The notes beneath the pieces are model-generated. The model saw nothing but the letters and a program-made list of their open reading frames with translations, did not search any database and was not told the DNA's origin. A program made the position numbers and the translations under genes. From a virus: a DNA stretch of 64,000 nucleotides. Shown one piece after another: positions 34,331-57,100 of the stretch. Positions within the stretch are counted from its first letter, which is position 1; every line of letters begins with the position of its first letter. The stretch covers positions 5,292 to 69,291 of the IMG/VR virus record IMGVR_UViG_3300020401_000001. One strand, written 5' to 3'.

Positions 34331-35023
34331 ATGATAAATTTCATTAGAAATGTTGTGATGTTTATTCTAAACAAAGAGAATAGAGGGTACTTAACTCCTA
34401 TTCAATTCAACTCTTACGTAAAGCTCGCACAGCAAACAGTATTCGATGGAATGTTCAAGCAATACAGAAAATTTTCTGTAAACAAGAACAACAGAATGGC
34501 TGCCATGGACTTTGGCGATGACAAGAAAAAACTTAGAGAAGACATTGACAGGTTTGTTAAAGAGGAACAGCTACAGGAGTTAGATGGTTATTTTATGATG
34601 CCAGTGGACTGCTATTATACTTTACAACTTATTTACGACAACAACATAGAAATAGAAGAAGCGGAAAAACATAAAATACTTACATACTTAACTAAGTCTA
34701 CCCTTGCATCTCCAAGCAGATGTTATCCTATGTATGCAAAGTATTATGACAAATATTTAATAAAGCCTGAAACTATTATAGATTGTGTAACTGCTGTATA
34801 CGTTAGGAAATTAAAAGACCCAAAATGGACGTATCAAACTATAGCAAGAAATCCTGTTTTCAATCCTTCTGATGTTTCATATCAAGACATTGAATTACAA
34901 GAAGACTATGCAAACGATATAATTGCTGAGATTTTAAAGTTAGCTGGATTACAACTACAAGATAACCAAATACTGCAAGCTTCACTTGCTTACGAACAAA
35001 ACACAATGGCAAAAGAAAATTAA
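34331..35023 (+). CDS. tail tubular/ring (head-tail adaptor)-like protein
   Basis: ORF 34160..35023 restarted at MINFIRN after the terminator; LNKENRGYLTP.QFN, PKWTY, DIEL; podovirus gene position. Confidence 0.6.
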   Translation: MINFIRNVVMFILNKENRGYLTPIQFNSYVKLAQQTVFDGMFKQYRKFSVNKNNRMAAMDFGDDKKKLREDIDRFVKEEQLQELDGYFMMPVDCYYTLQLIYDNNIEIEEAEKHKILTYLTKSTLASPSRCYPMYAKYYDKYLIKPETIIDCVTAVYVRKLKDPKWTYQTIARNPVFNPSDVSYQDIELQEDYANDIIAEILKLAGLQLQDNQILQASLAYEQNTMAKEN

Positions 35024-35029
35024 TGTATA

Positions 35030-35890
35030 ATGGCAATCACACAACAACAATATTACGCAAATGACGCTTTATGGGGCGGAACACAATACACTAAGCTAGA
35101 AGATATAATAAATAACTTCTATGCATTCTATGTTGGTGATGGTAAAGTTATAGATACTGCTAAAAGGTATGATGTTGTATTTCATGCAAAGCGAGCTCTC
35201 CAAGAGCTACATTACGATGCACTAAAAGAAATAAGAGCTGTAGAAATAGAGGTGCCCCCTCAACTACAAATGATTTTGCCAAAAGATTTCGTAAGTCTAG
35301 TAAGGCTTTCTTGGATTGACACTAAGGGGAGATTTCATCCTATTACAGAAAACAGAGACACAGCTATTGGTGTAGCTTACCTACAAAATGATGATGCTAC
35401 ATATTCATATCAGTTTGACGCTGAAGGCAACATAGAGGTAGGTAGCACTATAAGCCGTGAACGTGCAAAAACTGTACAACCAGAAGACCAAGACTCTACA
35501 TCTTTATTAGACGAAATGTATGGTGGTCGTTTTGGTATGATAACAAATAAGGCAAACATAAATGGAACTTACAACATCAGTAAACACCTTGGCACAATAG
35601 AATTTAGTACAGAGCTTACAGACAAGCTCGTAATGATTGAATATGTTACTGACGGGCTCACAGACCTTGATGATAGTGAAATACAGGTCCATAAGTTTGC
35701 AGAAAACTATGTTTTCAAACAAATTGCTTACTCTATATTATCCACTAAGTTCGGGGTTCAAGAATACATTGTCAGAAGATTTCAAAAAGAAGCGTTTGCT
35801 GCATTAAAAAACGCAAGAATAAGATTGAACGATGTCAACCCTGTTGACCTTGTAAAAGCGATGAAAGGTCGAAACAAGTGGATTAAATAA
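35030..35890 (+). CDS. second ring/adaptor-like structural protein
   Basis: 286 aa; [22 protein letters not shown]; precedes the stabilisation protein. Confidence 0.6.
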
Positions 35891-38800
35891 TGAGATTAAG
35901 AAATACTTTTATTGGCGGCAAAATGAACAAAGACGTAGACGAGCGTCTTGTTCCAGATGGTCAGTATAGAGATGCTGAGAACATCAAAGTTGCTATGTCT
36001 AATAGTTCTGACGTTGGCGCCTTAGAAAATGTGCTGTCAAATCAACAAAAATCTTTTTTAAATACAGGAGATAATGCTGAAACAATAGGTAGTGCAGCTG
36101 TCGAATACACTAATTGCGTTTATTGGTTTGTAAAGTCTGACACATCTAGCGCTGTTTATGAATACAATATTACTACTGATTTGCAAAGAATAATATTGCT
36201 AGACACCAGAACAGGTTCAGACAATGTATTAAATTTTACTAAAGAAAATAGAATAAACAATGTAGACACTGTAGTTGACACTGATAACGGTAAGATATTT
36301 ATATTCTGGACAGATGGACTTAATCCTCCTAGAAAAATAGAAATAGATAGAGCAGCTGGATATGGAGAAAATAATTTTACAGATGAAGACATTAGTGTTA
36401 TTGTAAAACCTCCACTGCATAGACCTACGTTTACTTTGTCTGCAACAAACACAGCTGACGAAAATTACATCAAAGACAAATTTTTGCAGTTTTCATATAG
36501 ATATAAATACGTAGACAATCAATATTCAGCTATATCTCCATTTAGCAATCCTGCATTCGAACCCTATCCTTTTAAATATAACTACGGACTAAATAGCAAT
36601 GAGTCATTTGTTAATAGGTATAATGTTGTAAACCTAACAGTAAACTCAGGAAGCCACCTAGTTAAAGAAGTTGAAGTCTTATATAAAGAAGCTGGTAAAA
36701 CAAATTTATATGTTGTAGAATCATACAACAAAGAAAAGAAAACTTGGGATGACAATACTGATTATGTAGTTACATTCCAAAACAAAAAGATAAGCAAGAT
36801 ACTTCCAGAGAGTCAAATTAAAAGAATATTTGATGCTGTGCCAAGAAAAGCTTTTTCACAAACATTTATTGGTAATAGATTGATTTATGGAAATTACACA
36901 GAAAACTGGAATCTTATTGATGAGGTAGGCGGTGAAATAAAACCTGACTTTACTGCTTCTGTTTTAACAAATGAATTTGCTACTGCACCATACACAACCA
37001 TGAAGTCTGGTAGAGACTACGAAGTTGGTATAGTGTATTTAGATGATTATGGCAGAACTACAACAGTTCTTACCTCTGATGGAAATAGTGTTTTTGTACC
37101 AAACGAAAATTCATTATATCAATCTAAACTGCAAGTTGAGATAAGAAGCAAAGCTCCTGTATGGGCAAAGTATTTTAGATTTTTTGTCAAAGAAAGCAAA
37201 CTGCCATACGACATAGTTATTCCTACAAGATTTTATGTTGATGGAGCTTATGTGTGGATAGAATTAACTGGTAGTGACGTTAACAAAGTAGAAAAAGGAA
37301 CACGTTTAGTAGTAAAAGCAGACACTTCTGGACCTGTAAAAGGATATGTAGAAACAGAAGTCTTAGACCTACAAACACAAACAGTAAACTTTTTAGAGCC
37401 TGACCCAACAGTAGCAGAGCTAGAACAAAAAGCAGGATTGTATTATAAGATAAGACCAAAAGGGTTTACTTTCAATAATAATGCAGTAGAAATATATGAG
37501 TTTGAATCGAATCACAGCACAAGAGATAGAAGGGAAGATATGATAGACAGGGGCGATAAGCTTCAATATTTTAGCGACCCAATACCTTATCTATCTGAAT
37601 CAACTACACTTGCTGGGAACTCATTATCTAGGTCAGGAACTAATATAGCTCCGAGAGATATTAGATATAAAATAATAATAGATGCCGTAGGAGATGGCAT
37701 TACAACTTACGATGAGTTTAGAGTTGAATATGAAGACAACGGAGTTGCTTACGCTCAACCAGCTGTAACAATTACAGGAAGTAGTCAAACTATAACTAAC
37801 GGGCTTAGTGTAAACTTTAGCTCTCGTTCTGGTCACACTGTTGGTGATTATTGGATGATTAGTGGTTATGGTAAAGAGCCTTTGAACTTTGGGAATCGTG
37901 ACAGGTCTCATGCTTTGTTTAGAGGAGAACCTGGCAATGAAGTTATTGAGGCAGGGTCAATAGTAGAAATAGAATATATCGAATCACAAAAAGCTGGTGA
38001 CGGATATAGCAATAGTTTTACAGAATCATACACTTCAAGCAGTAAATATGCAAACTTAGAAGAGTGGTATTACGGAGAAAACCTTTCTGGATTTGGTCCA
38101 GGAGTAACAGATGCCCAAGTATTTTTTAGGCATGTTAACTTGACTCCAAATCACGGAGGTGAAGGGGATACTGCTTACAAAGTGCAGGTACAGCAAAACG
38201 GAACTATGTGTATGATAATCCAAAGTAAACAAAGACAATGGAATGAGAGAAATGCAAGGTCGAGAGTTTACACAACGGGATTATTAGAAATTAAGACATC
38301 AGATAGTTTACCTATTTTTGAAACTAAAGGAATAGAAAAAGATTCAGATATATTTTTTGAAGTTGGAGACACTTATGAGTTATCAGAGAATGACACTTTT
38401 CATGTTGGTAAAGCAGGTGATGTTCCTCAATCTTTTACTTCTCCTGCTGTAATTACAATAGACGCACATAACGCATGGGCTTGGGGTAATGGATATGAGT
38501 CAATAAAAATTAAAGACTTATTCAATAATCCAACATTTACTTTTGACACAAGACCAAGCACGTTTATAGAAAGCTATAGAGAAAATAACAGAGTAGCTTC
38601 TTTAACTTACTCTGGTGTTTACGAGCAAAGCACAAATTTTAATGCCTTAAATGAATTTAATTTATCTACGGCAAACTTTAAAGATATAGATGACGCTTTA
38701 GGTAGTATACAAAAAATAGTATCACGAGATAATGATATTGTTGTGTTTCAAGAAAACAAAATATCTAAACTCCTCTTTAATAAAAATATTATATTCAACA

Positions 38801-39798
38801 CTGACGGTTCAGGTAATATATCACAAACTAAAAATGTATTAGGAACTATAACTCCTTATACAGGAGAATTTGGTGTTGGACTAAATCCTGAAAGTGTTTG
38901 TAAATATGGAAACGTAATATATTTTGCAGATACAAGTAGAGGTTTTGTGTTTAGACTATCTAACGATGGACTAACTCAAATATCACAGTATGGCATGGCA
39001 AACTATTTTAGAAGCGAATTGCCTGTGCGTGATTTAAACAAGACTTTAGGTGGATACAATCCAAGAGACGGAGAGTATATTTTGTCTTTACAAGGAGGAA
39101 CAGAGTCTACAGACACTTTATTGTGGGTTGGAGATGAATATACATGTGAACAAACATTCGTTGATGATGTAGTAGAATGGAGAGGTAGCGATGCTGTATG
39201 TCTTGTTTCTTGTTATGGAGAGTGGAAGCCATCTGACATAGTAAGTGACGGTCAAGATTGGAGAATAGACGAATATTATTGTGAGCAAGAAGAGCAAAGA
39301 CCAACACCTGCTCCAATTCCTACGCCAGCTCCAGCACCTACACCAGTACCTGTTGTTGTGCCTTCGCCATCGCCAGTACCAGTGCCTACACCAGTGCCAG
39401 TTGTAGCTCCTAACCCAACACCTTCACCAGCACCGACACCAGCGCCTGTAGCGGACTTACCACCATCGCCAACACCTAGTCCTACTCCGTCACCTACGCC
39501 AGCACCCGTGGTAATTCCAACGCCTAGTCCTACGCCTAGTCCTACGCCTGCGCCAGCGCCTACACCTACACCAACACCAGCGCCAGCAAGCCCAACAGCA
39601 TTTAGGTTAAACCCATGTAACCCGTTTGGTAGTTATGGTAAGAAAATAGCATTTGACTCTGGTCTGTATGTCGGAGCTGTGGTTACAATAGAAGATGGAA
39701 ACTGTTATGCGGTTAGTGCTGCTATCACTGATACTGCTAATTCTACGGTATCTCAGATTTTCTTAAATTGTTATAATTGTACTAATGGAATATTTTAA
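35890..39798 (+). CDS. tail stabilisation (nozzle/muzzle, P22 gp10-like) protein, N-terminal part, fused to a Pro-rich stalk and Cys-rich tip
   Basis: F.GGKMNKD.DERL.P.GQYRDA.N start; FSYRYKY.D.QYS.ISPFS; GNRLIYGNY; NEFN; GEFG...NPES; [14 protein letters not shown], then an abrupt change to Trp/Cys motifs and (PT/PA/PS)n. Confidence 0.75.
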
Positions 39799-41583
39799 AT
39801 GAGTAATACAGGAACAAAAATAGTGACAAGATTAAGACTGTTTAAAGACGGTTTAGCAACTAGCAAGACAAAAGCAAATGTTGAGGGAGATAAATATTAT
39901 GTTGCTCCATTTGAAGACTTGGTAGATTGCAACCCTCTTGGACCACCTGCACCTGTACCTACTCCTACTCCTGCGCCAGTTGCTGTACCAGCTACACCAC
40001 CTGCACCTACACCTATTCCAATAGCAGTGCCTACGCCTTCGCCTACGCCTACGCCTAGTCCATCGCCTATTCCTGCGCCTGTACCTAATCCATCACCGAG
40101 TCCAACACCTGCACCTGCACCAATTCCTGTAGCTACTACACCGACACCAACTCCAGCACCAGTGCCAAGCCCTGTGCCTACACCTGCGCCAGCTGTAGCA
40201 CCAACTCCTGCACCAGTTATGCCTACTCCTACACCTGTGCCTGCTGCACCGACCCCTACACCAACACCAGCTCCAGCTCCAACAACTAATACTGAAAGTG
40301 TTTGGTCGGCAAATGCATTAAGCATTAATCAAGGAGTCTATAATGGAGATGTTTCCATAAGTGATGCGGAACAAACAATATTTGGTCCTGTGAACAGTGG
40401 ATATGATACAGTAACAGCTTTATATTTAAGTGACGATTCTGGAAGTTTAAATACCGCTCAGTCTGTTATAGAATCAAGTAATGCTGGCGGAACTATAACC
40501 GCTTACTTAAATCAAAATCAACAGGTTCCAATACAAGTAAATCAGGCAGCTCCTTACTTTGCTATAAACGATGTAGGTGGAGGCTCACAAGCGCCAATAA
40601 GAAGCGCACAACTTGTAGTTAAAATAGGAGCAGATAGCACCTTACAGGTTATAAGTGGTTCTGATTTATTCCATGAAATAAGTCCTCTTAACCCTGTACC
40701 TTCTCCAGTTGCAGCGCCAGTAGCAGCAGATGTATGTTTAACTAATCCTGCTGCTGTAACAATACAAAGTATTGGAGGCGGTAATAAATATGTATTTGGA
40801 GGTACACACGGAAACTATAAAACATCGGTTGGAACCTATGTATTAACAAACGTCCCTAGCGGTCACCCTATTGCAATTCTAAATAGTGGCAAAGAAACCC
40901 TTATAAGTTATACTGGTACTTATAATGCTGGTTCAAAAGGTATAAATAATGTTTATCATGATTATTATTATGGAGACGTTACTATTACTGTAAACGGAGA
41001 TTACGGAACAGTTAGCTATGATTGTTTAAATCATGGATATATGGGAGGTGAAAACAACTTAACATACGATAATGTCACTTGTTCAGCGCCTTCTCCAGTG
41101 CCAGTAGCACCTACACCAACACCTGTAGGAGCTCCTATAGCAGCTCCACAAGCTGTAACTCCTGTTCCACAGCCTACACCTGCACCTACACCAGCTCCTG
41201 TGCCTACACCTGCTCCAGTTAATCCAACTTATGCCTTATCGCAAAGCTCAACGATTAACGTACAGGGCATGTATATGAACGGAACACTTTGGTATTATTT
41301 CGGCACTTACGGTAGCGATAGTTATAGGTTTAGCGCAACTACAGGAACATATACATTCAACATTCCTCAAGCACACCCTATTGCTTTCTATACAGCAGGA
41401 ACAACAAACAGTTACAGTGGAGGTACTGTACAAGGAACTAAAAACGGATTAGATGGAAACAGCTATGATTATAGATATGGAACAGTAACATTAACAATAA
41501 ATGATACAAGCGCAACGCCAGTGAGTTATGAGTGTTTCTTCCATGGTTACATGGGAGGCTTGAATAATCTCATATTGGTATAA
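39799..41583 (+). CDS. Pro-rich modular protein with two cupredoxin-like (H...CxxHxxM) domains
   Basis: Shared N-module; long (P-T/A/S/V)n tracts; [16 protein letters not shown] and [16 protein letters not shown]. Confidence 0.8.
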
Positions 41584-41587
41584 CAAT

Positions 41588-41595
41588 TATCTTTG
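41588..41595 (+). promoter_or_regulatory. -7 promoter element inside the cassette
   Basis: TATCTTTG upstream of the ATG at 41607. Confidence 0.55.
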
Positions 41596-41606
41596 TATGA
41601 TATAAT

Positions 41607-42596
41607 ATGGCAAATACAGGAAGAAAAATATTCACAACGATACGTCAATATGTAAATGGCGTTTGGAATGGTAACGAGAAGTTCAATAGCACTGACGACC
41701 CCGATTACCAATACCCTGTATATGATGAAGCTGAGTGCCCACTACCAGCTCCTCCTGTCCCTAGTCCTATACCAACACCTAGCCCAATACCAACACCTAG
41801 TCCAGTGCCTGTTCCTGTGCCAGCAGTAGCGGAAGTAGTTCCTAATCCAGTACCAAATCCAGCTCCAACACCGACTCCTGCGCCTGTACCTGTTGTTATT
41901 CCTACACCTGCACCAGTTCCAAATCCAACACCCGCACCACAACCAGCGCCGACACCCGCTCCTACCCCAGTGCCAGCGCCTGTTCCTGCTCCTACTTCAA
42001 ACCAGTATGTAGTTCTAGGACATGGAAACACTCCAGAGTCTGCATGTAATGATTTAGGTGCTGACTTATTCTACATTGATGGAGGACAATTAGCTACATC
42101 AACAAATGTATATTACGATGAATGGGGTAATACAAAATCGCAACCACAATATTTTGCTCAATCTGGAGTTGTAAGATATTGGAATGGACAACAGTTTACA
42201 TCTTACGCAAGTTGTAATCAACCAACACCAACTCCTAACGCTCCAACACCTATACCTGTAGCGGCACCAACGGCTAACTGTGGAACCAATATATACTACA
42301 TAAGTGAAGGTAAATTCTATGGTTCTTATTTCTGCCAATCACCTTTCGGAGGAATGGTTGGAGGAGGAGCGGCAACGACTTACCCAATAACTATGGCGGT
42401 TACATCGAACTATCCTGGAAGCGTAAATGCTCAACTAGGAGCTCAACTATGCTACAATGGACAACCTTTCTCTGGAAACGGCTTTGAATATTTAATGAGT
42501 ACCTTCCCTAGTAGTTTTAATGGAAACGGAAGTCATTCGCTAGTAACAATTAATGATGACGGTATAGTTACCGCAGTTAAATATATGACTTGTTAA
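41607..42596 (+). CDS. Pro-rich modular protein
   Basis: Shared N-module, Pro stalk, two Cys-flanked domains. Confidence 0.8.
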   Translation: MANTGRKIFTTIRQYVNGVWNGNEKFNSTDDPDYQYPVYDEAECPLPAPPVPSPIPTPSPIPTPSPVPVPVPAVAEVVPNPVPNPAPTPTPAPVPVVIPTPAPVPNPTPAPQPAPTPAPTPVPAPVPAPTSNQYVVLGHGNTPESACNDLGADLFYIDGGQLATSTNVYYDEWGNTKSQPQYFAQSGVVRYWNGQQFTSYASCNQPTPTPNAPTPIPVAAPTANCGTNIYYISEGKFYGSYFCQSPFGGMVGGGAATTYPITMAVTSNYPGSVNAQLGAQLCYNGQPFSGNGFEYLMSTFPSSFNGNGSHSLVTINDDGIVTAVKYMTC

Positions 42597-42597
42597 T

Positions 42598-43350
42598 ATG
42601 GCAAATACAGGAAGTAAAATATACACAACACTGAGGCTCATAAAAAATGGAGTAAGGACTGTACACGTTAAACCAAACGTGCCAGAAGACCCTAATTTTA
42701 TACCTCCTTTTACAGATTTAGCAGACTGCTTTACTAATGCTCCTGCACCTGCGCCAGTTCCTGTACCTACACCTGCTCCTGTACCTAACCCCGTTCCAGC
42801 TCCAGGACCAGCGCCTACGCCAGTACCTGCTCCAAGCACAATAGTACCAACACCAAGCCCAACCCCAGCGCCAGTTTCAGGTGTTGTGCCGACACCCGCT
42901 CCTTCGCCAGTTCCTGCCCCAACAGTTCCTTCGCCAGTTGGAGGTGGTTCGACTTACTACTTAAGTGCGCCTAGACAAACTGCTGGAGAGTTATGTACAG
43001 CTGCATTCTCAATAGTTATGAGAGTACAAGTTACAGCTTCATCAGTTTCAACATCGTTAGGTGCGCAAGTAACTAAAGATGGAACTAGATTTGCTGGTAA
43101 TAATAAATATTATGCAATGGATAGATACAATGTTGACACAACACATTCAGGAACAACATGGTTGGCTGTGCAAATTGACAATGATGGTATTATACAAGAC
43201 ATAATTAAAATAGACTGTGGGGACTTTGCTTTCTATGACGGTTCAGGAGGATGGGATTCTCCAGACCCATACAATACACAACCACAAGATGATGGAGACC
43301 TTGTATATTATTATAAAAACGTAATGCAAGGAGGTGGACAAAATTTATAA
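42598..43350 (+). CDS. Pro-rich modular protein
   Basis: Shared N-module, Pro stalk, Cys-flanked domain. Confidence 0.8.
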   Translation: MANTGSKIYTTLRLIKNGVRTVHVKPNVPEDPNFIPPFTDLADCFTNAPAPAPVPVPTPAPVPNPVPAPGPAPTPVPAPSTIVPTPSPTPAPVSGVVPTPAPSPVPAPTVPSPVGGGSTYYLSAPRQTAGELCTAAFSIVMRVQVTASSVSTSLGAQVTKDGTRFAGNNKYYAMDRYNVDTTHSGTTWLAVQIDNDGIIQDIIKIDCGDFAFYDGSGGWDSPDPYNTQPQDDGDLVYYYKNVMQGGGQNL

Positions 43351-43352
43351 AT

Positions 43353-43535
43353 ATGAGCTTTACAGGAAAAAAATATTATACAAAATTAAGAAAGTTCGTA
43401 AACGGAAAACCAACACAACAAGTGAAGGAAAATAAGATTACGGACCCAGATTATATAAAACCTTATGATGATATAAATGGATGCCCAAAAGGCACGTCTT
43501 CGCCTGCACCAGTTGCAGCGCCAACGACATATTAA
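43353..43535 (+). CDS. minimal protein consisting of the shared N-module and a short Pro tail
   Basis: MSFTGKKYYTKLRKFVNG...DPDYIKPYDD..GCP..SPAPVAAPTTY. Confidence 0.75.
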   Translation: MSFTGKKYYTKLRKFVNGKPTQQVKENKITDPDYIKPYDDINGCPKGTSSPAPVAAPTTY

Positions 43536-43541
43536 TTAATT

Positions 43542-45299
43542 ATGGGAGAGAAGTACAGTAAAATAAGAAAATACGTAAATGGCTTTCCAAAGCAAGACCA
43601 AGCCATCAATAGCCCTAACGAGCCAGGGTACATACCGCCTGTTTATGATGCAGGTCCATGTACTACATGTGAGCCAGAGGACGATGGTGATGTTATTGAA
43701 TGGAGAGGTCATGCTTTTTACTGTGAGCAAGAAGACGCTCCTACGCCTACTCCTAGTCCTACACCTAGTCCTACGCCTAGTCCAACTCCTAGCCCTACAC
43801 CTACGCCGACACCCACTCCAACACCCACTCCGACACCTAGTCCGAGTCCAGTTCCTGCGCCAAATCCTAGTCCAATACCAACTCCAGCACCTACGCCAGC
43901 TCCTTCTGTAGGATATGTGTATTATACTGTTAATGATTGTGCAAACACTTTTAATGATGTTGTAAGAAGCACTTTTTCTTTAGATACAGGAAGTGTTGTG
44001 AAGGCTACAGGAGTGACTGGTTGTTTAGAAATAGGAAGTTTAACACAGCCATCAGGCACAAACACTGTATATGAAACTTACACTGATTGTACTGATTGTG
44101 GCGCAACAACTCCTACTCCAACGCCAAGTCCAACACCTAGCCCAGTTCCAAATCCAACACCAAGTCCAACGCCTGCGCCTATTCCAAATCCAACACCAAG
44201 TCCAACGCCTGCGCCTTCTGTAACACCTGTAGTGCCTACACCTGTCCCACAACCTACGCCTACACCTATTCCAGGACCAGCGCCTTCGCCTACGCCTACC
44301 CCAACGCCAGCGCCTATTCCAATTCCTAATCCATCTCCAACACCAGCACCAGCATCAATACCGTGCTATGAGTTTGACATTGCAAATAATTCAAACCCAT
44401 TATTAGATGACTCATACACATACACGCAATGTGGTGGAGGAACAACTTCAGGAGCAGTATTCTATGGAGATGCAATAACTGTTTGTGGTACATCCTTCAC
44501 TCATGTAGGTGCAGGATTAACTGTAACAAACACACTTGTTCCTTGTACTGGAAGCCCTACTCCTAGCCCTACACCAGCACCTACTCCTAGCCCAACGCCA
44601 GCACCAACACCTGCGCCAGTCGCAAATCTTAACTATGTTGGATTAGGTAATGCAAACAGCGCTTCGGCTGCTTGTAGCGACAACTTAAATGACATGTTCT
44701 ATATAGATGGTGGACAGTTAGCTACTTCAACAGGAATTTATTATGATGCTGCGGGACAAAATCCTGCACAAGATACGCACTACACAGATGGAAATGGATT
44801 CTATGTTGTTTGGAACGGCACATCTATTACAAACCTATCGTCTTGTCCTTCAGGACCTGCGCCAACATCTCCTAGTCCAATATATATACCACCTACACCG
44901 AACCCTACACCTGTAGCACCTACTCCTAATCCTACGCCAGCACCAACACCAGTAGCGCCTACACCAAATCCAACGCCCGCTCCTGCACCGCAGCCGACAC
45001 CTAGTCCTACGCCAGCGCCTGTAGCACCGACACCTAGTCCTACGCCTGCACCTCAGCCAGTAGCGCCGCAGCCTTCGCCAACTCCAGCTCCAGCTGCTGT
45101 AGCTTCTTATAGAGTTGAGGTTCAAAAACAATCAGGAGTTAGCTACATGATATTTACATACACCAATTCTTATGGACAGGCTCAATACAAAAATAGTTCA
45201 GCCGCCTATGAGTATGTGTGTGCGCAAGGAGGTACAGTTCAGGCAATGTCAGGAGTACAGTCCCAGCAGAACCTATACACAAGTTGCGTTGGTAATTAA
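43542..45299 (+). CDS. Pro-rich modular protein with four stalks and four Cys-containing domains
   Basis: Shared N-module; (PTPS)n, (PT)n and (PA)n tracts alternate with ~60-70-aa domains. Confidence 0.8.
44146..44216 (+). repeat. exact 35-nt direct repeat with 36-nt period in a Pro stalk
   Basis: TTCCAAATCCAACACCAAGTCCAACGCCTGCGCCT at 44146 and 44182. Confidence 0.8.
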
Positions 45300-45342
45300 A
45301 AAATGATTAACTTAGTATGATATTTAAATATAATACAATCAA

Positions 45343-46608
45343 ATGTTCACAGAAATACCAAATTTTCTCACTCATGATGAGTGCGATTTATTTATACAAT
45401 TAATAGAAAAACAAAACACTCGTTCACAAGTTGCTGGAAGTGGAAGTGATAATTCTAAAATAGAAGATAGTAGAACTTCTTACACTTCTAATTTTGGCGA
45501 TAATATGTTACTTCCAAAAGCTCTAAAAGACAGGATTGCAGCTCATTTAGACATAGATGTTGCAAGGGGCGAAACATTACAAGGTCAAAAATACGAAGTA
45601 GGTCAATATTTTAGACCACATTTAGATTGGTTTCAAGGTGATGCATATAACAATCATTGTTTGCATTCTGGAAACAGAACTCACACTTTTATGTTGTATC
45701 TAAATGATGGTTTTGAAGGTGGAGGAACTGATTTTCCAAACCTAGGCAAAACTGTAAAACCAGAAAAAGGAAAAGCTGTAGTTTGGCGCAACATGGATGA
45801 TAATGGTAATGGTATTTCTGACGTTATGCATGAGGGTATGGATGTAACTAAAGGAACTAAATACATAGTTACAAGTTGGTGGAGAGAAAAAGAATTTAAT
45901 GGGGCTGAAAACGAAAGACTTGCAAGAGAATTTCATGAAGCACAAAAAAAAGAACAAGAATCTAAGATTGTAAATATAAATCCAAATTTAAAAACATTTA
46001 AAACTGTAGATGAAATACCTAGGTTTACAGAAAATGGATTTATGAAGGCTAAAGTGCCTCAAGATGTGTGGGGTATAATACAAGACTCATATCACATGTT
46101 AAAAGATAAAGAGGTTGCAGAACATTTTACAGGAAAAGAAGGTATTATAGATACAATAGTTACTGATGCGGAAAGCAGCACACTTTTAAGTTTTGAACAT
46201 ATACCAAATATTAGAACTCAAATACATAAAATGCTCATGCCGTTACATGAAGAGTGGGCAAAAACAAGACTAGAACCATCTTTCGTATATGGTATAAGGT
46301 CTTATCAAAGGGGAGCTACGTTAGCAAAACACGTTGATAGAATAGCTACTCATCATATATCTACTATTATTATTGTAGACAAAGACTTAAAGTGCGGTTG
46401 TCAAACTAAAGAGTTTGGTGATGATTGGGCTTTAGATATACAGGGTCATGACGGACAGTGGTATGAAGTTTTTGCTGAGCCAGGAGAGATGATATTGTAC
46501 GAATCTGCTGTTTGTGAACACGGTAGAGACAAACCTTTTCAGGGAACAAGCTTTAAAAACTTTTACACACACTACAAGTTAGTGGATTACCAGTATGCGG
46601 GACAATAA
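45343..46608 (+). CDS. prolyl 4-hydroxylase fused to a second 2OG-Fe(II) oxygenase domain
   Basis: Domain 1: SRTS, E.LQ..KYEVGQYFRPHLD, NRTHTFMLYLND..GGGTDFP, KPEKGKAV.W.N, HEG.DV.KG.KY...W. Domain 2: YGIRSY.RG..L..HVDR, PGEMILYES..CEHGR. Confidence 0.88.
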   Translation: MFTEIPNFLTHDECDLFIQLIEKQNTRSQVAGSGSDNSKIEDSRTSYTSNFGDNMLLPKALKDRIAAHLDIDVARGETLQGQKYEVGQYFRPHLDWFQGDAYNNHCLHSGNRTHTFMLYLNDGFEGGGTDFPNLGKTVKPEKGKAVVWRNMDDNGNGISDVMHEGMDVTKGTKYIVTSWWREKEFNGAENERLAREFHEAQKKEQESKIVNINPNLKTFKTVDEIPRFTENGFMKAKVPQDVWGIIQDSYHMLKDKEVAEHFTGKEGIIDTIVTDAESSTLLSFEHIPNIRTQIHKMLMPLHEEWAKTRLEPSFVYGIRSYQRGATLAKHVDRIATHHISTIIIVDKDLKCGCQTKEFGDDWALDIQGHDGQWYEVFAEPGEMILYESAVCEHGRDKPFQGTSFKNFYTHYKLVDYQYAGQ

Positions 46609-49165
46609 ATACATTTCTTTTGACCCGTGGTGGGGTGGTTTTTCTAACATAAGAATGACGTATGAATTAGTAGGAGCTTTATCTGTTATAACTGGTAGGA
46701 CAATAATTTTACCTCACAAAATATATTGTTTATTCTTATCAGAATGGCAAGATAAAAAAACATGGTTTGACATGTTTGATGCTTTAGATAAAAAAAAATT
46801 TAGAAAGCATTTTGATTGTATAGAATATTATGACATTCCAGAATATGAAAATCTTGAAAACGATACGCAATATTTCGAAAATATTTCGTCTGTTGCGAAA
46901 GTTATTACTTTTGGCGACAAAGACGGACAACTAGGTCCTATGAAAGGTCCTGGTAACGATTATGTCTTAACATGTGGCATAGAGGACCATAGCGAGTTTA
47001 ACATTTTTAAAGACGACAGACAAGTCATAGATTTAGAGTGTGATGATAAGTTCATGCACTTTCCAAGAAACTTGTTCGGTCATTTTTATTATCATGTATA
47101 TGGCAAAACACCTGTTATTAGAAACAGGATAAAAGAGAAAGTAAACTTAGGGATACAGTATAGACCTGATATTTTTGAGAAAGCTAAAAAGATTACAGAC
47201 AAACTAGGTGAATTTAATGCTATTCATGTTAGAAGAAATGACTTTTTGCAGGTAAGAAAAGATATTGCAGAGCGTCAAACAGTAAACCTTCTAGATGATA
47301 TTTCTAACAGAATACCTAACGACAAGCCTTTATTTATAGCTACAGACGAAAAAGACAAGTCTGTATTTTTGCCATTAAAAAAGAAATACAACGTATTATA
47401 TCTAACTGATTTTCCACAATCAGGAGTAAACGACACTGACGATTTGCTTTTAGACCAAGTTGTATGCTCTCAAGCAGATATTTTTTTAGGTAGTCACCTA
47501 TCGACTTTTTCTGACTACGTAAACATTATTAGAGGTCAGCAAAATAAAAAAGATTTTCACAGAGAAGGAACTAACTTTAACAGACCTAAAATATCATATA
47601 ATAGATTTCCATGGGAAGTAGAAGAGTATGGATGGGATAAAACGTGGAGTTTTCATTGGGAATATGAACAATCATACTTTAACATAGCTGTATATGGGTC
47701 TCACAACGCTTCTGTTGCATTATCCCACAAAGCTGATGTTCTTGAGGTAGTAGAGTTAGAAAGGTTTGTAAACAAGAAAAACGCAGCTTTTTATTTTCAT
47801 TTTCCAGAAGAAAACCCAGACGATTTGACTTTGCAAATACATAATTATTTTGTTAAAAAATATGGTAGTTATGTGTATGATAATTGCTTATACAATAGCT
47901 GTTTAACTAATATAAACGTTTTGCCTGCTAAAAACTATGAGTGGGTAGGACATCATCTTGCTCATGTAAACAATGTTATATTCCAATCGCCAGCGAAAAA
48001 AAGTTTAAATATATCTTTTGATGGGGGCTCTGATGAAGGGCATTTTAATATATATAGAACTGAAGAAGATAAGGTGCCAGAAAAAATATTTTCTACAAAA
48101 CAAGATATATGCGTCCCCTATGCTGCTGTAGCCCACTATCTGTCTCCAATAAAACAAGAAGAAAATTGGTGGTGGGGTAACTTGGTATATGCAGGTAAGC
48201 TTATGGGACTGTCTGCATACGGGACAGTAAATCAAGATGACTATGATAAAATGTATCGCTACTTTAAGATGCAACAAACAGATAATGTAAATACAGCGCA
48301 TGAAAACTTCCAAAGAATATTTAATGTAAGTCCTGAAAAAAGATTTGATGAAGAAAAATCTTACGACTTAGCCGCTGCTACACAAAAAGTTTTTGAGGAT
48401 ATATTTAAAGAAACTATAGACCCTTTTGTTGAGACGCATAAAGATTATGAGTTACAGTTTAGTGGAGGTGGCGCCTTAAATGTTATAAACAACGCTAAAT
48501 GGGACGCTTTTGTTAGTCCTAATCCTGACGATAGAGGATTATCTGTAGGGATGTTGTTTCATAAAATAAAACCTGGTCATGTTGTTGACACAAAATATTT
48601 AGGCTCAGAAATGTTTGGTATGTATACACAACACAAACCATACAGCATTGACGAGATGTGTGAGGATTTATTAGAAGGCAAAATAATTGGTTTATGTCAA
48701 GGACGTGGAGAGCACGGAGCAAGAGCTTTGTGTAATAGAAGCATACTATGTCTGCCTAAAAAAGGTTTCAAAGAAAAACTTAATGACCAAGTAAAACATA
48801 GAGAGGCTTTCCGACCTTTCGCACCTGTATGTAGAAAGGAGGATGCTAACACGTGGTTTGATTTTGGAAAACACACTGAATATATGAGCCACAACGCAAC
48901 AGTTAAAAATGTAAATAAAAGTATACAATCTATAATACACAAAGACTATACCGCTAGGTTACAAACAGTCACCTCGTCATCAAATCCCTTTGTTTATTTA
49001 CTTTTAACTAGAATGAAGGAATTAGGTCATGAGCCAATATTAATAAACACATCGTTTAATGTAATGGGAAAACCTATAATAAATCAGTGGCAGGAAGCTA
49101 TAAGTATGCTGAATGATACTGGATTAGACATATTAACTGACGGCAAAAGTAAAATTTATGGATAG
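46595..49165 (+). CDS. fusion: O-fucosyltransferase-like GT-B domain plus NodU/CmcH/TobZ-type O-carbamoyltransferase
   Basis: N part: GGFSNIRM, FNAIHVRRNDF, LFIATDE, DQVVCSQA..FLGS..STFS. C part: SHNAS, ELERF, HHLAH, DGG, GKLMGLSAYG, SGG.ALN, E.GARAL.NRSIL, KHRE.FRPFAP, TARLQTV, NTSFN..GKPI. Confidence 0.85.
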   Translation: MRDNKYISFDPWWGGFSNIRMTYELVGALSVITGRTIILPHKIYCLFLSEWQDKKTWFDMFDALDKKKFRKHFDCIEYYDIPEYENLENDTQYFENISSVAKVITFGDKDGQLGPMKGPGNDYVLTCGIEDHSEFNIFKDDRQVIDLECDDKFMHFPRNLFGHFYYHVYGKTPVIRNRIKEKVNLGIQYRPDIFEKAKKITDKLGEFNAIHVRRNDFLQVRKDIAERQTVNLLDDISNRIPNDKPLFIATDEKDKSVFLPLKKKYNVLYLTDFPQSGVNDTDDLLLDQVVCSQADIFLGSHLSTFSDYVNIIRGQQNKKDFHREGTNFNRPKISYNRFPWEVEEYGWDKTWSFHWEYEQSYFNIAVYGSHNASVALSHKADVLEVVELERFVNKKNAAFYFHFPEENPDDLTLQIHNYFVKKYGSYVYDNCLYNSCLTNINVLPAKNYEWVGHHLAHVNNVIFQSPAKKSLNISFDGGSDEGHFNIYRTEEDKVPEKIFSTKQDICVPYAAVAHYLSPIKQEENWWWGNLVYAGKLMGLSAYGTVNQDDYDKMYRYFKMQQTDNVNTAHENFQRIFNVSPEKRFDEEKSYDLAAATQKVFEDIFKETIDPFVETHKDYELQFSGGGALNVINNAKWDAFVSPNPDDRGLSVGMLFHKIKPGHVVDTKYLGSEMFGMYTQHKPYSIDEMCEDLLEGKIIGLCQGRGEHGARALCNRSILCLPKKGFKEKLNDQVKHREAFRPFAPVCRKEDANTWFDFGKHTEYMSHNATVKNVNKSIQSIIHKDYTARLQTVTSSSNPFVYLLLTRMKELGHEPILINTSFNVMGKPIINQWQEAISMLNDTGLDILTDGKSKIYG

Positions 49166-50012
49166 AATATTTTTAAGTATAGCATCATATAGAGACCCAG
49201 ACTTAATAAACACAATAAAAGACGCACACAAAAGGGCTGACAGACCTGATAGAATAACATTTGGAGTATTGTTTCAGGGCACTAAAGAAGAGATGAACAC
49301 TTTTCTTTCTGAAGCCGTAGGAAAAATGAATGTTAAATATGTGCACCATAACGATACAAAAGGAACAGGATGGGCAAGAAATATCCTTACAAGAGACATG
49401 CTTGAGGATGAAGAGTATTGGTTGCAAATAGATTCACACACAAGATTTATTGAAGGATGGGACACAAAGCTTATTAATTTATATAATAAAATAGGAGAAG
49501 ATTGTCTTATATCAGCATACCCTCCACACTTCGGAATGAACGAGTCCTATGATGTATATACAACTAAAACCCTAAACAACAAAGCTTTAGTAGAGGGCTT
49601 TACCGATGTGTTCAGTTTTGAAAACACTGTAGGAAAAATTCCTGAGCAAGAATATGAAGAGTCAATAACGGCTGCGGGGGCTTTTCAGTTTACAAAAAGA
49701 CATGTAGCAAAATCTATGACGTTCGATGCATATTTTAATCCATGGATGGACCAAGAAATTTCTTCTTGTTTGGCATGGATGAATGGATTTAACATTTATG
49801 CGCCTAGAGATGCTGTATTGTGGCACTGTTATGAAGATAATCATATAGGGTCTAATGAAAAATGGAGAGGTCTGGTAGCTGACGAAGTAAAAGTTACTGG
49901 TTACGAAGACAAGCCCTTTGATATTATAAAACACTGGCATACAAAGAGAAACTGGAATCAGTGGAAAGATAGGGTTCTTGTAGATATTAATGATTTAAAA
50001 AAAGAAAAATGA
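49158..50012 (+). CDS. Skp1-type hydroxyproline/polypeptide alpha-GlcNAc transferase (GT60-like)
   Basis: IFLSIASYRDP.L..TI, P.RI.FGV..Q, G.GWAR, EEYWLQIDSHTRF..GWD..LI, ISAYPP. Confidence 0.8.
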   Translation: MDRIFLSIASYRDPDLINTIKDAHKRADRPDRITFGVLFQGTKEEMNTFLSEAVGKMNVKYVHHNDTKGTGWARNILTRDMLEDEEYWLQIDSHTRFIEGWDTKLINLYNKIGEDCLISAYPPHFGMNESYDVYTTKTLNNKALVEGFTDVFSFENTVGKIPEQEYEESITAAGAFQFTKRHVAKSMTFDAYFNPWMDQEISSCLAWMNGFNIYAPRDAVLWHCYEDNHIGSNEKWRGLVADEVKVTGYEDKPFDIIKHWHTKRNWNQWKDRVLVDINDLKKEK

Positions 50013-50992
50013 AAACAGCTTTAGTTTTAGGTGGTGGAGGTTTTATAGGCTCACACCTTATAAAAAGATTAAAAGAAGAAGGCTACTATGTTAGAGCAGT
50101 AGACTTAAAAAAACCTGAATTTTGGAAAACAGTAGCAGACGACTTTATTGTTGGAGATTTAAGATGGAGTCATATATGCTCTGCCGCATTCAGACCTTTA
50201 GAAGGAAAAAGAAAATTCGATGAGGTTTATCAGCTTGCTGCCGATATGGGTGGCGCTGGTTATCTGTTTACTGGTGATAGTGATGCAGATATTATGCACA
50301 ACTCTGCCTTAATCAATATGAATGTATTAAGGGAATGCGTTGTTGATGAGCATGCTCCTGGTAGAATATTTTACGCAAGTAGCGCCTGTGTGTATCCAGA
50401 GTACAATCAGCTGGACCCAGAAAGCCCAAAATGTACAGAAGATAGCGTATATCCTGCTGAACCTGACTCTGAATATGGATGGGAAAAATTGTTTAGTGAA
50501 AGAATGTACATGGCTTTTGCAAGAAATAAAAACTTAGATGTAAGGATAGGAAGGTTTCATGGAATCTTTGGACCATACGGAACATGGACTGACGGCAAAG
50601 AAAAAGCTCCTGCTGCAATTTGTAGAAAAGTTGCAGAATCAAACGATAGTATAGAAATATGGGGAGATGGAGAACAAACTAGGTCGTTTATGTATATAGA
50701 TGATGCTATTGATACAGTCCGTAAATTTATGATGAACAAAGGATTTCAGGGACCAATGAATATAGGTTCTGAAGAAATGGTATCTATAAATAACTATGCA
50801 CGCATAGTAATGGAAGTTGCAAAAAAAGATTTGGATATTGTGCACATAGAAGGTCCACAAGGTGTGAGAGGAAGAAACTCAGACAACACATTAATGGAGC
50901 AAGAATTGAACTGGACTCCAGGCGGTAGTCTTAGAGATGGTGTGGAAAAAACGTACAAGTGGATTGAAGAGCAGGTGCAAAAACTGTCTTAG
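50009..50992 (+). CDS. GDP-mannose 3,5-epimerase-like NAD-dependent epimerase
   Basis: GGGGFIG, LAADMGGAG, YASSACVYPE, YGWEK (YxxxK), GKEKAPAAICRK, WGDGEQTRSF, NIGSEEMVS, GVRGRNSDN. Confidence 0.88.
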   Translation: MKTALVLGGGGFIGSHLIKRLKEEGYYVRAVDLKKPEFWKTVADDFIVGDLRWSHICSAAFRPLEGKRKFDEVYQLAADMGGAGYLFTGDSDADIMHNSALINMNVLRECVVDEHAPGRIFYASSACVYPEYNQLDPESPKCTEDSVYPAEPDSEYGWEKLFSERMYMAFARNKNLDVRIGRFHGIFGPYGTWTDGKEKAPAAICRKVAESNDSIEIWGDGEQTRSFMYIDDAIDTVRKFMMNKGFQGPMNIGSEEMVSINNYARIVMEVAKKDLDIVHIEGPQGVRGRNSDNTLMEQELNWTPGGSLRDGVEKTYKWIEEQVQKLS

Positions 50993-51013: not shown

Positions 51014-51754
51014 ATGGCAAACTACGAGAACAAAACAGTTGGGTTTAGTGAAATAAATAACGGCTGGACGTCATTTTATTCTTACATTCCTGAAGATATG
51101 GTCTACATGAAGTCAGACTTTTACACTTTTAAGGGCGGTAATATATACAAACATAACATTGATGACGCTTCTCGTAACAAATTTTACGATAAATATTATC
51201 CTAGCAAGGTTGAAACTATCATAAATGATGACCCAGAAGCTGTGAAAAACTTTAGAACTCTTAATATGGAAGGCTCTTCTGCTTTCTGGAGAGTAGAAAT
51301 AAACACAGACTTAGATAAAGGCGGAGCAACTTATGATGATTTTGAAGAGAGAGAGCGATTGTTTAAAGCTCACATCAGAACTGACAGAGACGACAATCTT
51401 AATTTAGAAAGACTTACCGTGCAAGGGCTAGGTACACTAATATCTACAAATGGCACATCTATGTATTTTAGATTTATAGATAACGCCATTGAGTATGGTG
51501 ACTTCGTTTATAAAATATATGGTAAATCGTATACGTATTTAGGTAAAATTATTGCTGTATTTGAAGATTATATTATGTTAGACTCTATAGCTGACCCAGT
51601 AGACCCTGGTCAATTTTGTTTTGCTACAAAAGACCCAGTGATAGAAAGCTATGGATTGAAAGGATATTTTGGCAGCTTTACGTGTACAAGTTATGAATCA
51701 ACTCCAATAGAATTGTTTGCAGTTGGTACAGAAGTAACGCAAAGCAGTAAATAA
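51014..51754 (+). CDS. probable C-terminal part of the tail stabilisation protein, as a separate gene
   Basis: TVGFSE..NGWTSFYSYIPE, FYTFKGG.IYKHN, N.FY, VKNFRTL..EG, GLKGY, ELFAV. Confidence 0.65.
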   Translation: MANYENKTVGFSEINNGWTSFYSYIPEDMVYMKSDFYTFKGGNIYKHNIDDASRNKFYDKYYPSKVETIINDDPEAVKNFRTLNMEGSSAFWRVEINTDLDKGGATYDDFEERERLFKAHIRTDRDDNLNLERLTVQGLGTLISTNGTSMYFRFIDNAIEYGDFVYKIYGKSYTYLGKIIAVFEDYIMLDSIADPVDPGQFCFATKDPVIESYGLKGYFGSFTCTSYESTPIELFAVGTEVTQSSK

Positions 51755-54138: not shown

Positions 54139-57100
54139 ATGGACAAGGAAGTATTAGAAGATTTATATAAGAGAGCTGTATCTAAAGGGTACACTAAGAC
54201 GTTAGAAGATTTTACGTTGCTGATAAATTCTGATGAAGAAGTTTTATTGGACAATTATAATTACGTCAAAGAAAAAGGATATGCAAAACCGATAGAAGAT
54301 TTTCAAGCTCTTCTCACTGAAAAAAAAAATCCAGAAGTCTCTTCAATCAAGCCGACAGAAAACATTCCAATCGCTTTTTCGGAATCAAATTTTTCATTGG
54401 AAAATACCAAGTTGTCTTCGGATTTATTCGAACCAGAAAAAGCCGATGAATACAGACAGTTTTTTAAATACAATGGATTCGGCGTACCTACCATAGGTGT
54501 AGAAAAAGACACAGACGGTCAGTATTTAAAAGGAGGGTTTGGTGATTTCATTAATCAGTTGCCGTTTGGAGAGTTTATAGATGACCAAGCTAGAGCATGG
54601 GCTAGCGGAAAAGAAGATGCAGATGCAGCTGAAGCTGCTGCCGAATTAATGAATGAGATAGGCACATTTTCAAAAGGCAACCCTACGGTAGAGCAAGCAA
54701 ACATAATGCTTAAAGAAATGTTTGAATCACAGACAACTCCTATGTCTGATGAGATGAAACAGTTCCAAAAAGATTTACAAGAAAACGGTAACGATGCTTA
54801 CGCAGCTGTAAAAGCCGCAGCTAACAACCCTAGTGCTGCTACAGAATACGTTATGAGAAGCATGCGTTCTATGTTTAATGATGACGCTATAGCTACAGGA
54901 CTCGCCACGCTAGGAACAAATACCGCATTAGGGTTTGCTGCTGGAGGACCTTATGGCGCTTTAGGTGGTTTTATGAGAGGTATTCCTGCTGCAATGACAG
55001 CAATGGGAGCTCAAACTGACATGGCATTATCTTTTGGAGAGTTTTTTCTAGAGGAGCTAGGTGATGGTTTTACAAGACAAGATGTAGCAAACCTTTTACA
55101 GGACCCTGAAAAATTACAAAAAGTACAGAATAGAGCTTTAGCTAGGGGTGTTTCTATTGCTGCTGTTAATGCGTTTACTGCTGGACTAGGAATAAGAATA
55201 GCATCAAATGTATTTAGGGCAGGAAGAAAAGGTTTGAGAGCAGGTTTAGAGTCGTTTGCTAAAGTTACGCCTTTAGATATGGCTGGTGGGTCTCTTGGTG
55301 AATTTGCAGCGCAAGCAACATCAGGACAAGAATTTAACACAGCTGAAATGGCTTTAGAAGGTCTCCTTGACCCAATGTCTAGTATTGCAACAACAGTAGG
55401 AGGTACTGTTATTGATGCAGGAAGCGCTCCTTCATATAAAATTAACGGAGGTAAAACTACTAAAGCAGACTTTATAAGACGTTTAGGCGCAATGTCTGAC
55501 GAACAATTAGAGCAAGCAAATTTCACTGTAAACAATGACGATGAAACTTGGCGTCAAGTTGATGATAGGCTAAAAGATATTCAGTTTGGAAGAGAAATAA
55601 AAGAAATTTATGGAGACATAGATGATGAGCAAACAAGAAGATTAACTGATTTAGAAAAAGAAAAAAGAACTTTAGAAAAGAAGAAATCTACCACTGCACA
55701 AAAAAGATTAGCTGATGTAAACCAAGAAATAGATGAGGTTTTAGAAATATATAAAACTAAACGTGAAGCTATTGGTATTTTGTCTGCACCATATTACGAC
55801 AGAAACGTAACAAGCGTAGAGGACGCACAAAAGAAAAGAAAGACTAAAGAATACAAACAGTATAAAACAAAAGCCAAAAAGCTTGCCGAAACTATGGGCT
55901 TGACAGTCAGCGCCATGAACGATGGCATTGGTGGTTATTTTTTAGATGACGGCACTTACTTACAAGAGCTATCTTCTGAGGTTTACTTAGAAGGAGCTAC
56001 ATACGAACAGGCGATAGAATATGCTTCTGTGTTGGGCGCTATCACTCCTGAAACACAAGAAAGTACAATCGCTGGTATGATTGTAGGTGAAGGTGAGGGT
56101 GATGCCTCAAAATTTAACTTCATAATCGAAGATAATAATAACCTAGAAAGTGTAAGAACTGCTTTAGATGAGCTAGGAATTGAGTATTCTATGAATACAG
56201 ATACTGGCGAGATAGGAATTATTGACTTCGCAGATGGAAATAATGTAGAACTTAACGAAAAAATTGGTATATTTGTACAGGTACTAAATGAAAACAATAT
56301 AAATCATGAGCAAAGACTTGAGAGAATCCGTTCGAAATATATCGGCGCAGAAGACAGGGCTGGAAACCTACAAAACATTAAAGAAAATTCCTCTAAGTTT
56401 GGAAAGAGTGGGGAAAGCGTTCGTTACATCGCAGAACAAGCCGAAAAAAGGAACAAAAAATACTTAGACGAAAAAAAGAAAGCACCTAAAACGGTGCAGG
56501 AAGAGTCGAAAGAACCTGTGGTTGTAAAACCTCTTCCTGAAAACTCTGAAAGACTACAACCTGTAGACAGAGTTAAAAAAATTGCAAAAACAATACGCAG
56601 AGCTTTTAGGAGAACTTTTCTCCGAGACGCAGGTTTACCTAAAAACATAGGAGACGCTATAAGAGCTTACAGAAGAAAAGGAACTGCAATCCAAAATTAT
56701 TTATCAGACCAGCAAGTTGTGTTTCTTGACATGTACGATGCTGCTACAAAGTCAATGACTAAAAAACAAGAGCGACAGTTTGGAGCTTACGTAAATGAAG
56801 CGTTAGCTGGAAATGTTGTTGATGGCATATTTACTCCTGAACAACAAAACGTTATTGAGTCAATGCGACTTGAAATAGATAAGAAAACTGATGAGCTTGT
56901 AGCAATGCTTGAAAAGTATGGCAAAAACGATGAAAGAACACAAGACTTAATTAAAACGTTACAAGATAATAAAGGAACATACATTCACAGAACTTATGCT
57001 GCATTTAAAGATTTAAATTACCTACAAGAAATGATTGGTGACCCTGCATTAGCACGCTCTGCAATCAATGAATCTTATGATTTGCTAGTAGCAGAAACTG

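Follow-up and report, generated by a model that had tools for sequence, protein, structure and literature searches.

Five consecutive genes in a 64,000-nucleotide stretch of viral DNA (positions 5,292 to 69,291 of the IMG/VR record IMGVR_UViG_3300020401_000001; this whole stretch is the window below) begin with a common N-terminal module of about 45 residues, here called M. We found that M belongs to a large unannotated protein family and that it is accompanied by a short second motif, W, which recurs in the tail of the hub protein encoded immediately before the five genes, a fragment of the phage muzzle. W and M stand side by side in single-chain proteins, where they are predicted to share one small sheet, and they occur together, on separate proteins, in viral loci related to the window. 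We consider it likely that strand complementation in trans between M and W is what docks the fibres, with a disulfide probably locking the junction. The source record is 69,291 bp long with direct terminal repeats, and its structural genes are akin to those of the phi38:1/Calle group of podophages, which come from Cellulophaga, Flavobacterium, Tenacibaculum and Maribacter (Pervagoviridae).

The module M and its family

The first-pass annotation, made from the letters of the window and a list of its open reading frames (ORFs), had noted a common N-terminal module of about 45 amino acids (aa) on five ORFs and suggested that it might be a docking tag. All five copies exist, and a hidden Markov model (HMM) of the module finds each of them:

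39799..39933, + strand: M1, N-terminus of the 594-aa ORF 39799-41583 (HMM E 8.5e-21)
41607..41741, + strand: M2, N-terminus of the 329-aa ORF 41607-42596 (HMM E 9.5e-25)
42598..42732, + strand: M3, N-terminus of the 250-aa ORF 42598-43350 (HMM E 2.0e-23)
43353..43535, + strand: M4, a module-only mini-protein of 60 aa (HMM E 1.3e-25)
43542..43664, + strand: M5, shortened, N-terminus of the 585-aa ORF 43542-45299 (HMM positions 7-45, E 4.6e-17)

The same annotation had made its tag depend on a significant alignment of these N-termini. They do align, and 8 of the 10 pairs reach E<=1e-3 in pairwise BLASTP, with only 39799-41607 and 39799-43542 above that value. Residues G5, K7, R13, G18, N27, P37, D40 and C44 are invariant across the five modules in the alignment; M5 is without the first six or so positions and ends in C-x2-C. 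When ORF 43353 was used as query, a six-frame search of the whole 69,291-bp record gave exactly five places and nothing else, the four paralogues scoring E = 7e-11 to 2e-6. What follows the module can be large: in ORF 39799, M1 is succeeded by a Pro-rich linker and globular domains. Domains are also shared further along the module proteins, in a mosaic of bead domains: residues 134-203 of the 41607 product match residues 365-435 of the 43542 product (46% identity, E 5e-15), and its residues 226-329 match residues 116-207 of the 42598 product (27.5% identity, E 1e-5).

ORF 43353 had been described as almost only module, and this holds: its 60 aa are the module and 15 further residues, and its counterparts in relatives have 48-49 aa. 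All relatives of the window lineage keep a module-only gene of 48-60 aa, which immediately precedes the 43542 orthologue. In the window 43353 and 43542 share a reading frame, with TAA and two codons between them (43533-43544), and stop-codon read-through from one into the other was considered; it was rejected on the L011 orthologues, which lie in different frames with a one-base overlap.

The modules are under purifying selection. Against the orthologues of the loci L017, L023 and L024 the ratio of nonsynonymous to synonymous substitution rates (dN/dS) of the module is 0.09-0.32, in the 9 of 13 comparisons for which dS could be computed; synonymous sites were saturated in the other four. Among themselves the module paralogues share 36-52% identity in protein and 49-61% in DNA, and each is nearer to its own orthologue than to its neighbours. 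Because of this, and of their low mutual protein identity, the five modules are old copies that have been conserved individually, not a recent repeat.

A search of wider databases with a module HMM had also been proposed. Run against 1.84 billion protein representatives, it returned a large family with M mostly at the N-terminus: 406 protein clusters passed E<=1e-3, and 85 of them E<=1e-10. Among the matches listed, M lies at residue 1-7 in 134 of 150 family members. The M-bearing proteins range from 48 to >1000 aa, and the parts after M are diverse, with Pro- or Thr-rich linkers and varied small Cys-containing domains, DUF5977, MBG, or propeller-like repeats. In the sequences listed M thus mostly stands at the very start of proteins whose distal parts differ, as in fibre anchors. 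The top profile match, P0003 (2027 aa), was rejected as a false positive: it is a eukaryote-like Cys-rich repeat protein with 15 partial matches that cover only profile positions 6-32, and is one of the 16 listed members without M at residue 1-7. P0006 has a match pattern similar to that of P0003.

M is unannotated. Pfam gave 0 families for the five module proteins at E<=0.01, and PHROGs had no match over the module. In a phage collection neither megablast with window 35000-47000 nor tblastn with ORF 41607 gave a match, and a 46-aa module query gave only the phage MA9V-3, at E 1e-2, which was then confirmed by HMM. The complete phi38:1 and Panino genomes yielded no M, and an ESM Atlas search with the module gave no usable match. 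A literature search, which covered papers without their supplementary files, found none describing the module or the W motif.

The W motif and the W-M unit

A minority of M family members carry M internally, as a tandem repeat. In these proteins each M is flanked by W, a short motif W-x6-C, and the order W-M-W-M(-W) recurs with constant spacing in L058 (2878-4266), P0005, P0007, P0010 and P0073: about 7 residues separate the W Cys from the NTG of M, and 6-13 residues the M Cys from the next W. AlphaFold2 predicts one W-M-W unit of L058 with a mean pLDDT (predicted local distance difference test) of 93.4, from a 48-row alignment, and places strands at residues 3-15 (W), 18-32 (the first half of M) and 38-44 (M). 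The W strand pairs with the first M strand in the model, and the trailing W is outside the sheet, which suggests that W belongs structurally to the M that follows it. Because W is predicted to form the first strand of this sheet, an N-terminal M would be a unit without its first strand.

No close match to the fold of the unit was found. Foldseek against the PDB with the W-M model gave nothing at E<=1e-3. The best VIA-align match was a thrombospondin type-1 domain (8oxr_A, Z 2.9, root-mean-square deviation 4.4 over 53 residues), followed by the G5-E domains of SasG/Aap (8deo_B, Z 2.6; 5dbl_A, Z 2.5); to judge from the model, both likenesses are far below a meaningful level. No phage fibre protein was among the matches listed in either search.

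In the window, W lies on the muzzle and, once, on a fibre gene. The features concerned are:

35890..39798, + strand: muzN, muzzle N-fragment of 1302 aa (Pfam, PHROG and phi38:1 gp097 alignment)
39124..39147, + strand: W1, WVGDEYTC, one Cys, motif in the muzN tail
39178..39213, + strand: W2, two Cys, motif in the muzN tail
39223..39246, + strand: W3, degenerate, WKPSDIVS, no Cys; its position is kept in L023 and L024
39259..39282, + strand: W4, WRIDEYYC, one Cys, motif in the muzN tail, directly followed by the Pro-rich linker
43701..43724, + strand: W5, WRGHAFYC, 13 residues after M5 in ORF 43542, a possible extra docking site
51014..51754, + strand: muzC, muzzle C-fragment of 246 aa, without module in the window (Pfam and phi38:1 gp097 alignment)

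The muzN product is 41% identical to a 'virion structural protein' of phi38:1/Calle-group podophages, and matches Pfam crAss_MUZ (PF25731) at E 1.6e-18 and phrog_14478 at E 2e-259. The homologous muzzle core takes up its residues 1-1069; behind it come the tail with the W motifs, a Pro-rich linker and a small end domain that contains Cys. The W motifs start right after the last propeller segment and before muzN's own linker. W-x6-C is rare by chance: ORFs of at least 150 aa in the window hold 5 matches in 18,916 residues, and 4 of these are the W motifs described here. Predicted alone, the muzN tail (residues 1050-1149) has a mean pLDDT of 42.8, from an alignment of only 15 rows, and this low value fits a segment that depends on a partner. 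A complex prediction from the alignments of the muzN tail and the module, run without controls, scored 0.09 against a mark of 0.32, which speaks neither for nor against binding.

We propose that M is one half of a two-piece connector and the W strand motif the other half. In cis, W and the following M would make up one small three-stranded sheet domain. In the window phage the halves would lie on different proteins, W on the muzN tail and ORF 43542 and M on the five fibre genes, and beta-strand complementation in trans would let each M complete a W strand, at the place where single-chain versions have a hairpin between W and M. The conserved W Cys and Cys44 of M probably form a disulfide that locks the junction. 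Each of the six muzzle subunits might then hold its own covalent fibre and up to five plugged-in proteins, with W5 on ORF 43542 adding one site to the four of muzN; the cargo-less 60-aa 43353 protein would fill one W site and add no fibre. The binding in trans, the disulfide, this stoichiometry and the assignment of each M to a W are what we infer from comparing sequences.

Split muzzles and a second hub

The muzC product matches Pfam crAss_MUZ_C (PF25729) at E 1.3e-12. The phi38:1 muzzle is a single chain, gp097 (1324 aa), whose residues 2-1076 correspond to muzN 1-1069 and residues 1079-1321 to muzC 8-244. Because the two window products align end to end with this one protein, the window muzzle is encoded in two pieces that together correspond to one propeller protein. 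The break point is contiguous in gp097, and the phi38:1 muzzle carries neither W nor M. In the window the gap between muzN and muzC is 11 kb and holds the five module genes and then an enzyme cassette.

For an unbiased view of this arrangement, 80 viral loci were picked by muzC alone; the muzN tail is visible in 71. The muzzle is split in 71 of these 71, mostly with a gap of a few bases, so that the split is the common state and the gap a hot spot for extra genes. The idea that insertion of a fibre cassette had split the muzzle gene was rejected, since 61 of the 71 are split without W or M and the gap is mostly a few bases. The muzzle homologue of Maribacter phage Panino (L007, 9001-12914) is also annotated as two coding sequences; it is broken near residue 947, a different place from the window's break, with no genes between and no module.

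W and M occur together across these loci. Eight of the 71 have both, 61 have neither, two have a W-like motif without M, and none has M without W (Fisher p 4e-9). Counted as clusters at >=70% identity, the same four classes hold 4, 32, 1 and 0 (p 8e-5). A further sample was selected by M, and 17 of its loci include muzN as well as muzC: 11 carry a single M gene and a single W, placed directly behind the anchor, and 5 carry two W motifs and two M genes. The window has three Cys-bearing W motifs and one degenerate W on muzN and one W on ORF 43542, against five M.

M can also be joined to the muzzle itself. It is fused to the N-terminus of muzC in five relatives (L068, L069, L071, L072 and L138), and in all four of these with the muzN tail present (not L138) muzN ends in one W; W and M thereby stand to either side of the break in one protein. 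P0109, a homologue of muzN, continues behind this split anchor with an Ig (immunoglobulin) domain, followed by W-M in cis.

The number of cysteines in W and M changes in step. In the lineage whose W reads EWREDTYVC, with one Cys, M ends in DCPIS, also with one; where W reads EWREDAFEC..SSCDLEAIIY, M ends in ECPxGCDAIVSGSV, and both have two Cys and are extended by a hydrophobic stretch. The window's sole two-Cys W (W2) is matched by its sole two-Cys M, that of 43542.

M could instead be a docking tag for another part of the virion, such as muzC, the ring protein encoded at 35030 or the capsid, with W only accompanying the same fibre cassette. The position of the M gene immediately upstream of muzC in lineages with one or two modules speaks for this, and there is precedent for capsid docking in phage PhiCrAss001, whose head fibres gp21 and gp29 are anchored in capsid pockets by residues 1-38 and 1-58 (PMC10172136). 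The M genes of the window, on the other hand, do not adjoin muzC, and a W that merely co-travels leaves little reason for single-chain proteins to put W beside M, for the fold model to pair the two or for their Cys numbers to covary. W and M are moreover both present in MA9V-3 and in L064, on a different hub protein and with no muzzle, so that W is the only shared element. We regard a receptor other than W as unlikely.

Chryseobacterium phage MA9V-3 is described as a cultured myovirus with a contractile tail (PMC13120357); its host is Chryseobacterium indologenes. Beside its Baseplate_J gene we found a gene for a 555-aa protein with three C-terminal W motifs, followed by three M-bearing genes (12001, 12749 and 13104 in the coordinates of its locus, L065). 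L064 shows the same pattern of three W motifs and then three M genes, and in L059, L061 and L062/L063 a single M gene is directly preceded by a gene with one W. P0067 is a homologue that matches the MA9V-3 protein along all 555 aa (E 3e-77) and unites W-M-W-M, linker and tip in one chain; the fission products of P0067-like proteins part exactly between W and M.

This place of fission also bears on a different reading of the tandem proteins, in which M is a shaft or bead domain, or one that binds a ligand, and is complete in itself; W would be a spacer within the repeat, there would be no complementation in trans, and the fibres would attach in some other way. Long tandem arrays of W-M units inside single proteins would suit it, as would the weak structural look-alikes above (Z 2.9 and Z 2.5-2.6), which are rod-forming three-stranded domains, and the proteins P0109 and P0005, which end with M. 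It leaves unexplained why chains should break just there, why there are hub proteins whose C-terminal W motifs come without M, why M sits at residue 1-7 in so many family members among the matches listed, and why a cargo-less M protein is conserved. We think a shaft domain quite improbable.

Several observations weigh against docking of M on W as we propose it. The fold model is that of a distant metagenomic single-chain unit and not of the window proteins, and an N-terminal M might fold without W. The unbiased loci with both W and M make up only about four lineages, and the number of independent events behind the statistics is accordingly small. A rule by which every M gene has exactly one W was rejected, since four loci break it: L060 has two M genes to one W, L073 has four or five near-identical W motifs to one M gene, and L120 and L122 lack M although a W-like motif stands at the expected place. 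In the window itself the balance of five to five is reached only if the Cys-less W3 is counted. P0109 and P0005 end in an M with no W on either side, so that in other contexts M can also occupy the end of a chain. The W repeats of L073 (1500-6806) lie on muzN and read EWxEDTYxC; as a sequence pattern they would suit a muzzle subunit that carries the same fibre several times.

With these points counted, docking of M on W remains the reading we favour, and part of the earlier proposal survives in it. The first-pass annotation had pictured an interchangeable adaptor that plugs different stalk-plus-tip proteins into equivalent sites on the virion, with the products of 35890 and 51014 as candidate partners. 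The tag itself gains comparative evidence from the co-occurrence, the fusions and the Cys covariation; the generic equivalent sites and the 51014 product (muzC) drop out, and the proposed site narrows to the W-x6-C motifs found C-terminally on the 35890 product (muzN) and once on ORF 43542.

Neighbouring genes and known systems

The enzyme cassette behind the module genes encodes, in order, a 2-oxoglutarate (2OG)-Fe(II) oxygenase, which we presume to be prolyl-hydroxylase-like, a NodU-like carbamoyltransferase fusion, ORF 49158 and a sugar-nucleotide epimerase/dehydratase-type protein. L012 has, like the window, a 2OG-oxygenase, a NodU-like protein and an epimerase as module neighbours; L032 has a radical-SAM (S-adenosylmethionine)/SPASM enzyme and a phrog_4417 protein, and L040 the phrog_4417 protein only. 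The enzyme-bearing stretches are window 45343-50992, L012 8837-12102, L032 6004-7955 and L065 14396-15301. The type of enzyme tracks the linker: Pro-rich linkers go with the oxygenase cassette and Thr-rich ones with the phrog_4417 protein, including in MA9V-3. This 301-aa protein is 39% identical between a marine podophage and MA9V-3 and is sometimes accompanied by the radical-SAM/SPASM enzyme. The pairing of linker and enzyme suggests modified, perhaps glycosylated, fibre stalks.

These enzymes lay behind a second suggestion of the first-pass annotation, that M is a recognition leader which brings the Pro/Thr-rich stalks to the neighbouring modifying enzymes, as in ribosomally synthesized and post-translationally modified peptides (RiPPs). 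RiPP leaders are conserved N-terminal segments that stand before a variable region, beside modifying enzymes. The module genes do adjoin the oxygenase, the carbamoyltransferase fusion, ORF 49158 (no family match) and the epimerase, and one lineage has a radical-SAM/SPASM enzyme beside a module gene. The enzyme sets change between lineages, though, while M and W persist, and enzyme type goes with the type of linker and not with M. Moreover, muzN, which has no module, shares the Pro/Thr-rich linker and the bead domains, and in the five loci with M on muzC no stalk follows it. A RiPP leader would need a constant partnership with one enzyme family, which M does not show, and would be a short unstructured segment on a small precursor, cut off once modification is done; M is confidently folded in the prediction with W (pLDDT 93.4), is also internal in tandem repeats, and sits on large structural proteins. 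The leader idea is not supported, and we hold it very improbable.

A few other features of the window were seen. Between 40001 and 46000 the G+C content rises to 0.42-0.44, from 0.33-0.39 elsewhere, and the GC skew is negative, both of which fit linkers rich in Pro, Thr and Ala codons; the long antisense ORFs there (e.g., 39897-40325) look like by-products of the repeats. By eye, no Shine-Dalgarno-like sequence precedes the starts of 39799, 41607, 42598 and 43542, and a GGAGG lies about 20 nt before that of 43353; the lack before most module genes presumably fits a Bacteroidota host. Two giant ORFs, 18963-24794 and 54139-59643, encode 1943 and 1834 aa, and the second has the position of a large 'structural protein' in relatives (phi38:1 gp101).

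How fibres are attached decides the number and kind of receptor-binding proteins that a phage carries, and we know of nothing on this subject for the abundant marine flavobacterial podophages with crAss-type muzzles. We tentatively suggest, as a possibility we would not put at even chances, that W-M is a portable disulfide-locked connector of Bacteroidota phages with different tail types, in which the number and sequence of the W motifs are an address code for fibres. Under such a code W motifs that have diverged would each bind an M of their own, likewise diverged, a series of identical W would bind one M in many copies, and an M without cargo would be a filler; the hubs would be the podovirus muzzle here and the baseplate-cluster protein in MA9V-3. 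If this is true, the set of host-binding fibres could be changed by gene swap with the hub untouched. A short pair defined by sequence, with W on the hub and M on the fibre, would let metagenomic contigs show which genes are fibre genes and in what stoichiometry. It would also explain the split-muzzle gap as a hot spot for accessory fibre genes, and could serve as a compact natural link between proteins with which to engineer the host range of phages in laboratory strains. Docking is the first function proposed for this unannotated family of at least 400 protein clusters.

Connectors of two pieces are known in principle; the present form is, as far as we found, apparently undescribed. The N-terminal domain of T7 gp17 and the head-binding domain of P22-type tailspikes each join a conserved attachment part to exchangeable receptor-binding parts. 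Those adaptor domains are larger and trimeric and bind a folded surface, whereas M is proposed to complete a strand motif of the hub and also occurs as an internal tandem repeat.

Short N-terminal fibre anchors are described for PhiCrAss001: besides the head fibres cited above, tail fibre gp22 is held in the tail hub by its residues 1-26, and the tail assembly is stabilised by disulfides (PMC10172136). The muzzle of that phage is homologous to the one described here (Pfam crAss_MUZ). Its anchors differ from the proposed role of M in docking on hub or capsid and not on the muzzle, which in PhiCrAss001 is one chain. No sequence similarity of M to the crAss anchors was found (Pfam and PHROGs have no match for the module).

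The closest described system is that of the Pseudomonas podophage A1002, whose nozzle is split into two polypeptides that complete one beta-propeller, and in which a 'rope' fragment binds 11 fibre dimers by beta-augmentation (PMC13730344). Both phages have a split tail-tip protein, and the repeated fibre sites of the A1002 fragment may have a counterpart in the repeated W motifs of the window muzN, which co-occur with M genes and would be occupied by M. No sequence relation is apparent. The A1002 sites bind whole small fibre dimers of two proteins, whereas those proposed here are W-x6-C strands of 8-12 residues for a dedicated 45-aa N-terminal module. M, in addition, is common to fibres with unrelated distal parts and is probably disulfide-bonded, and the W-M pair is also found on a myovirus baseplate-cluster protein.

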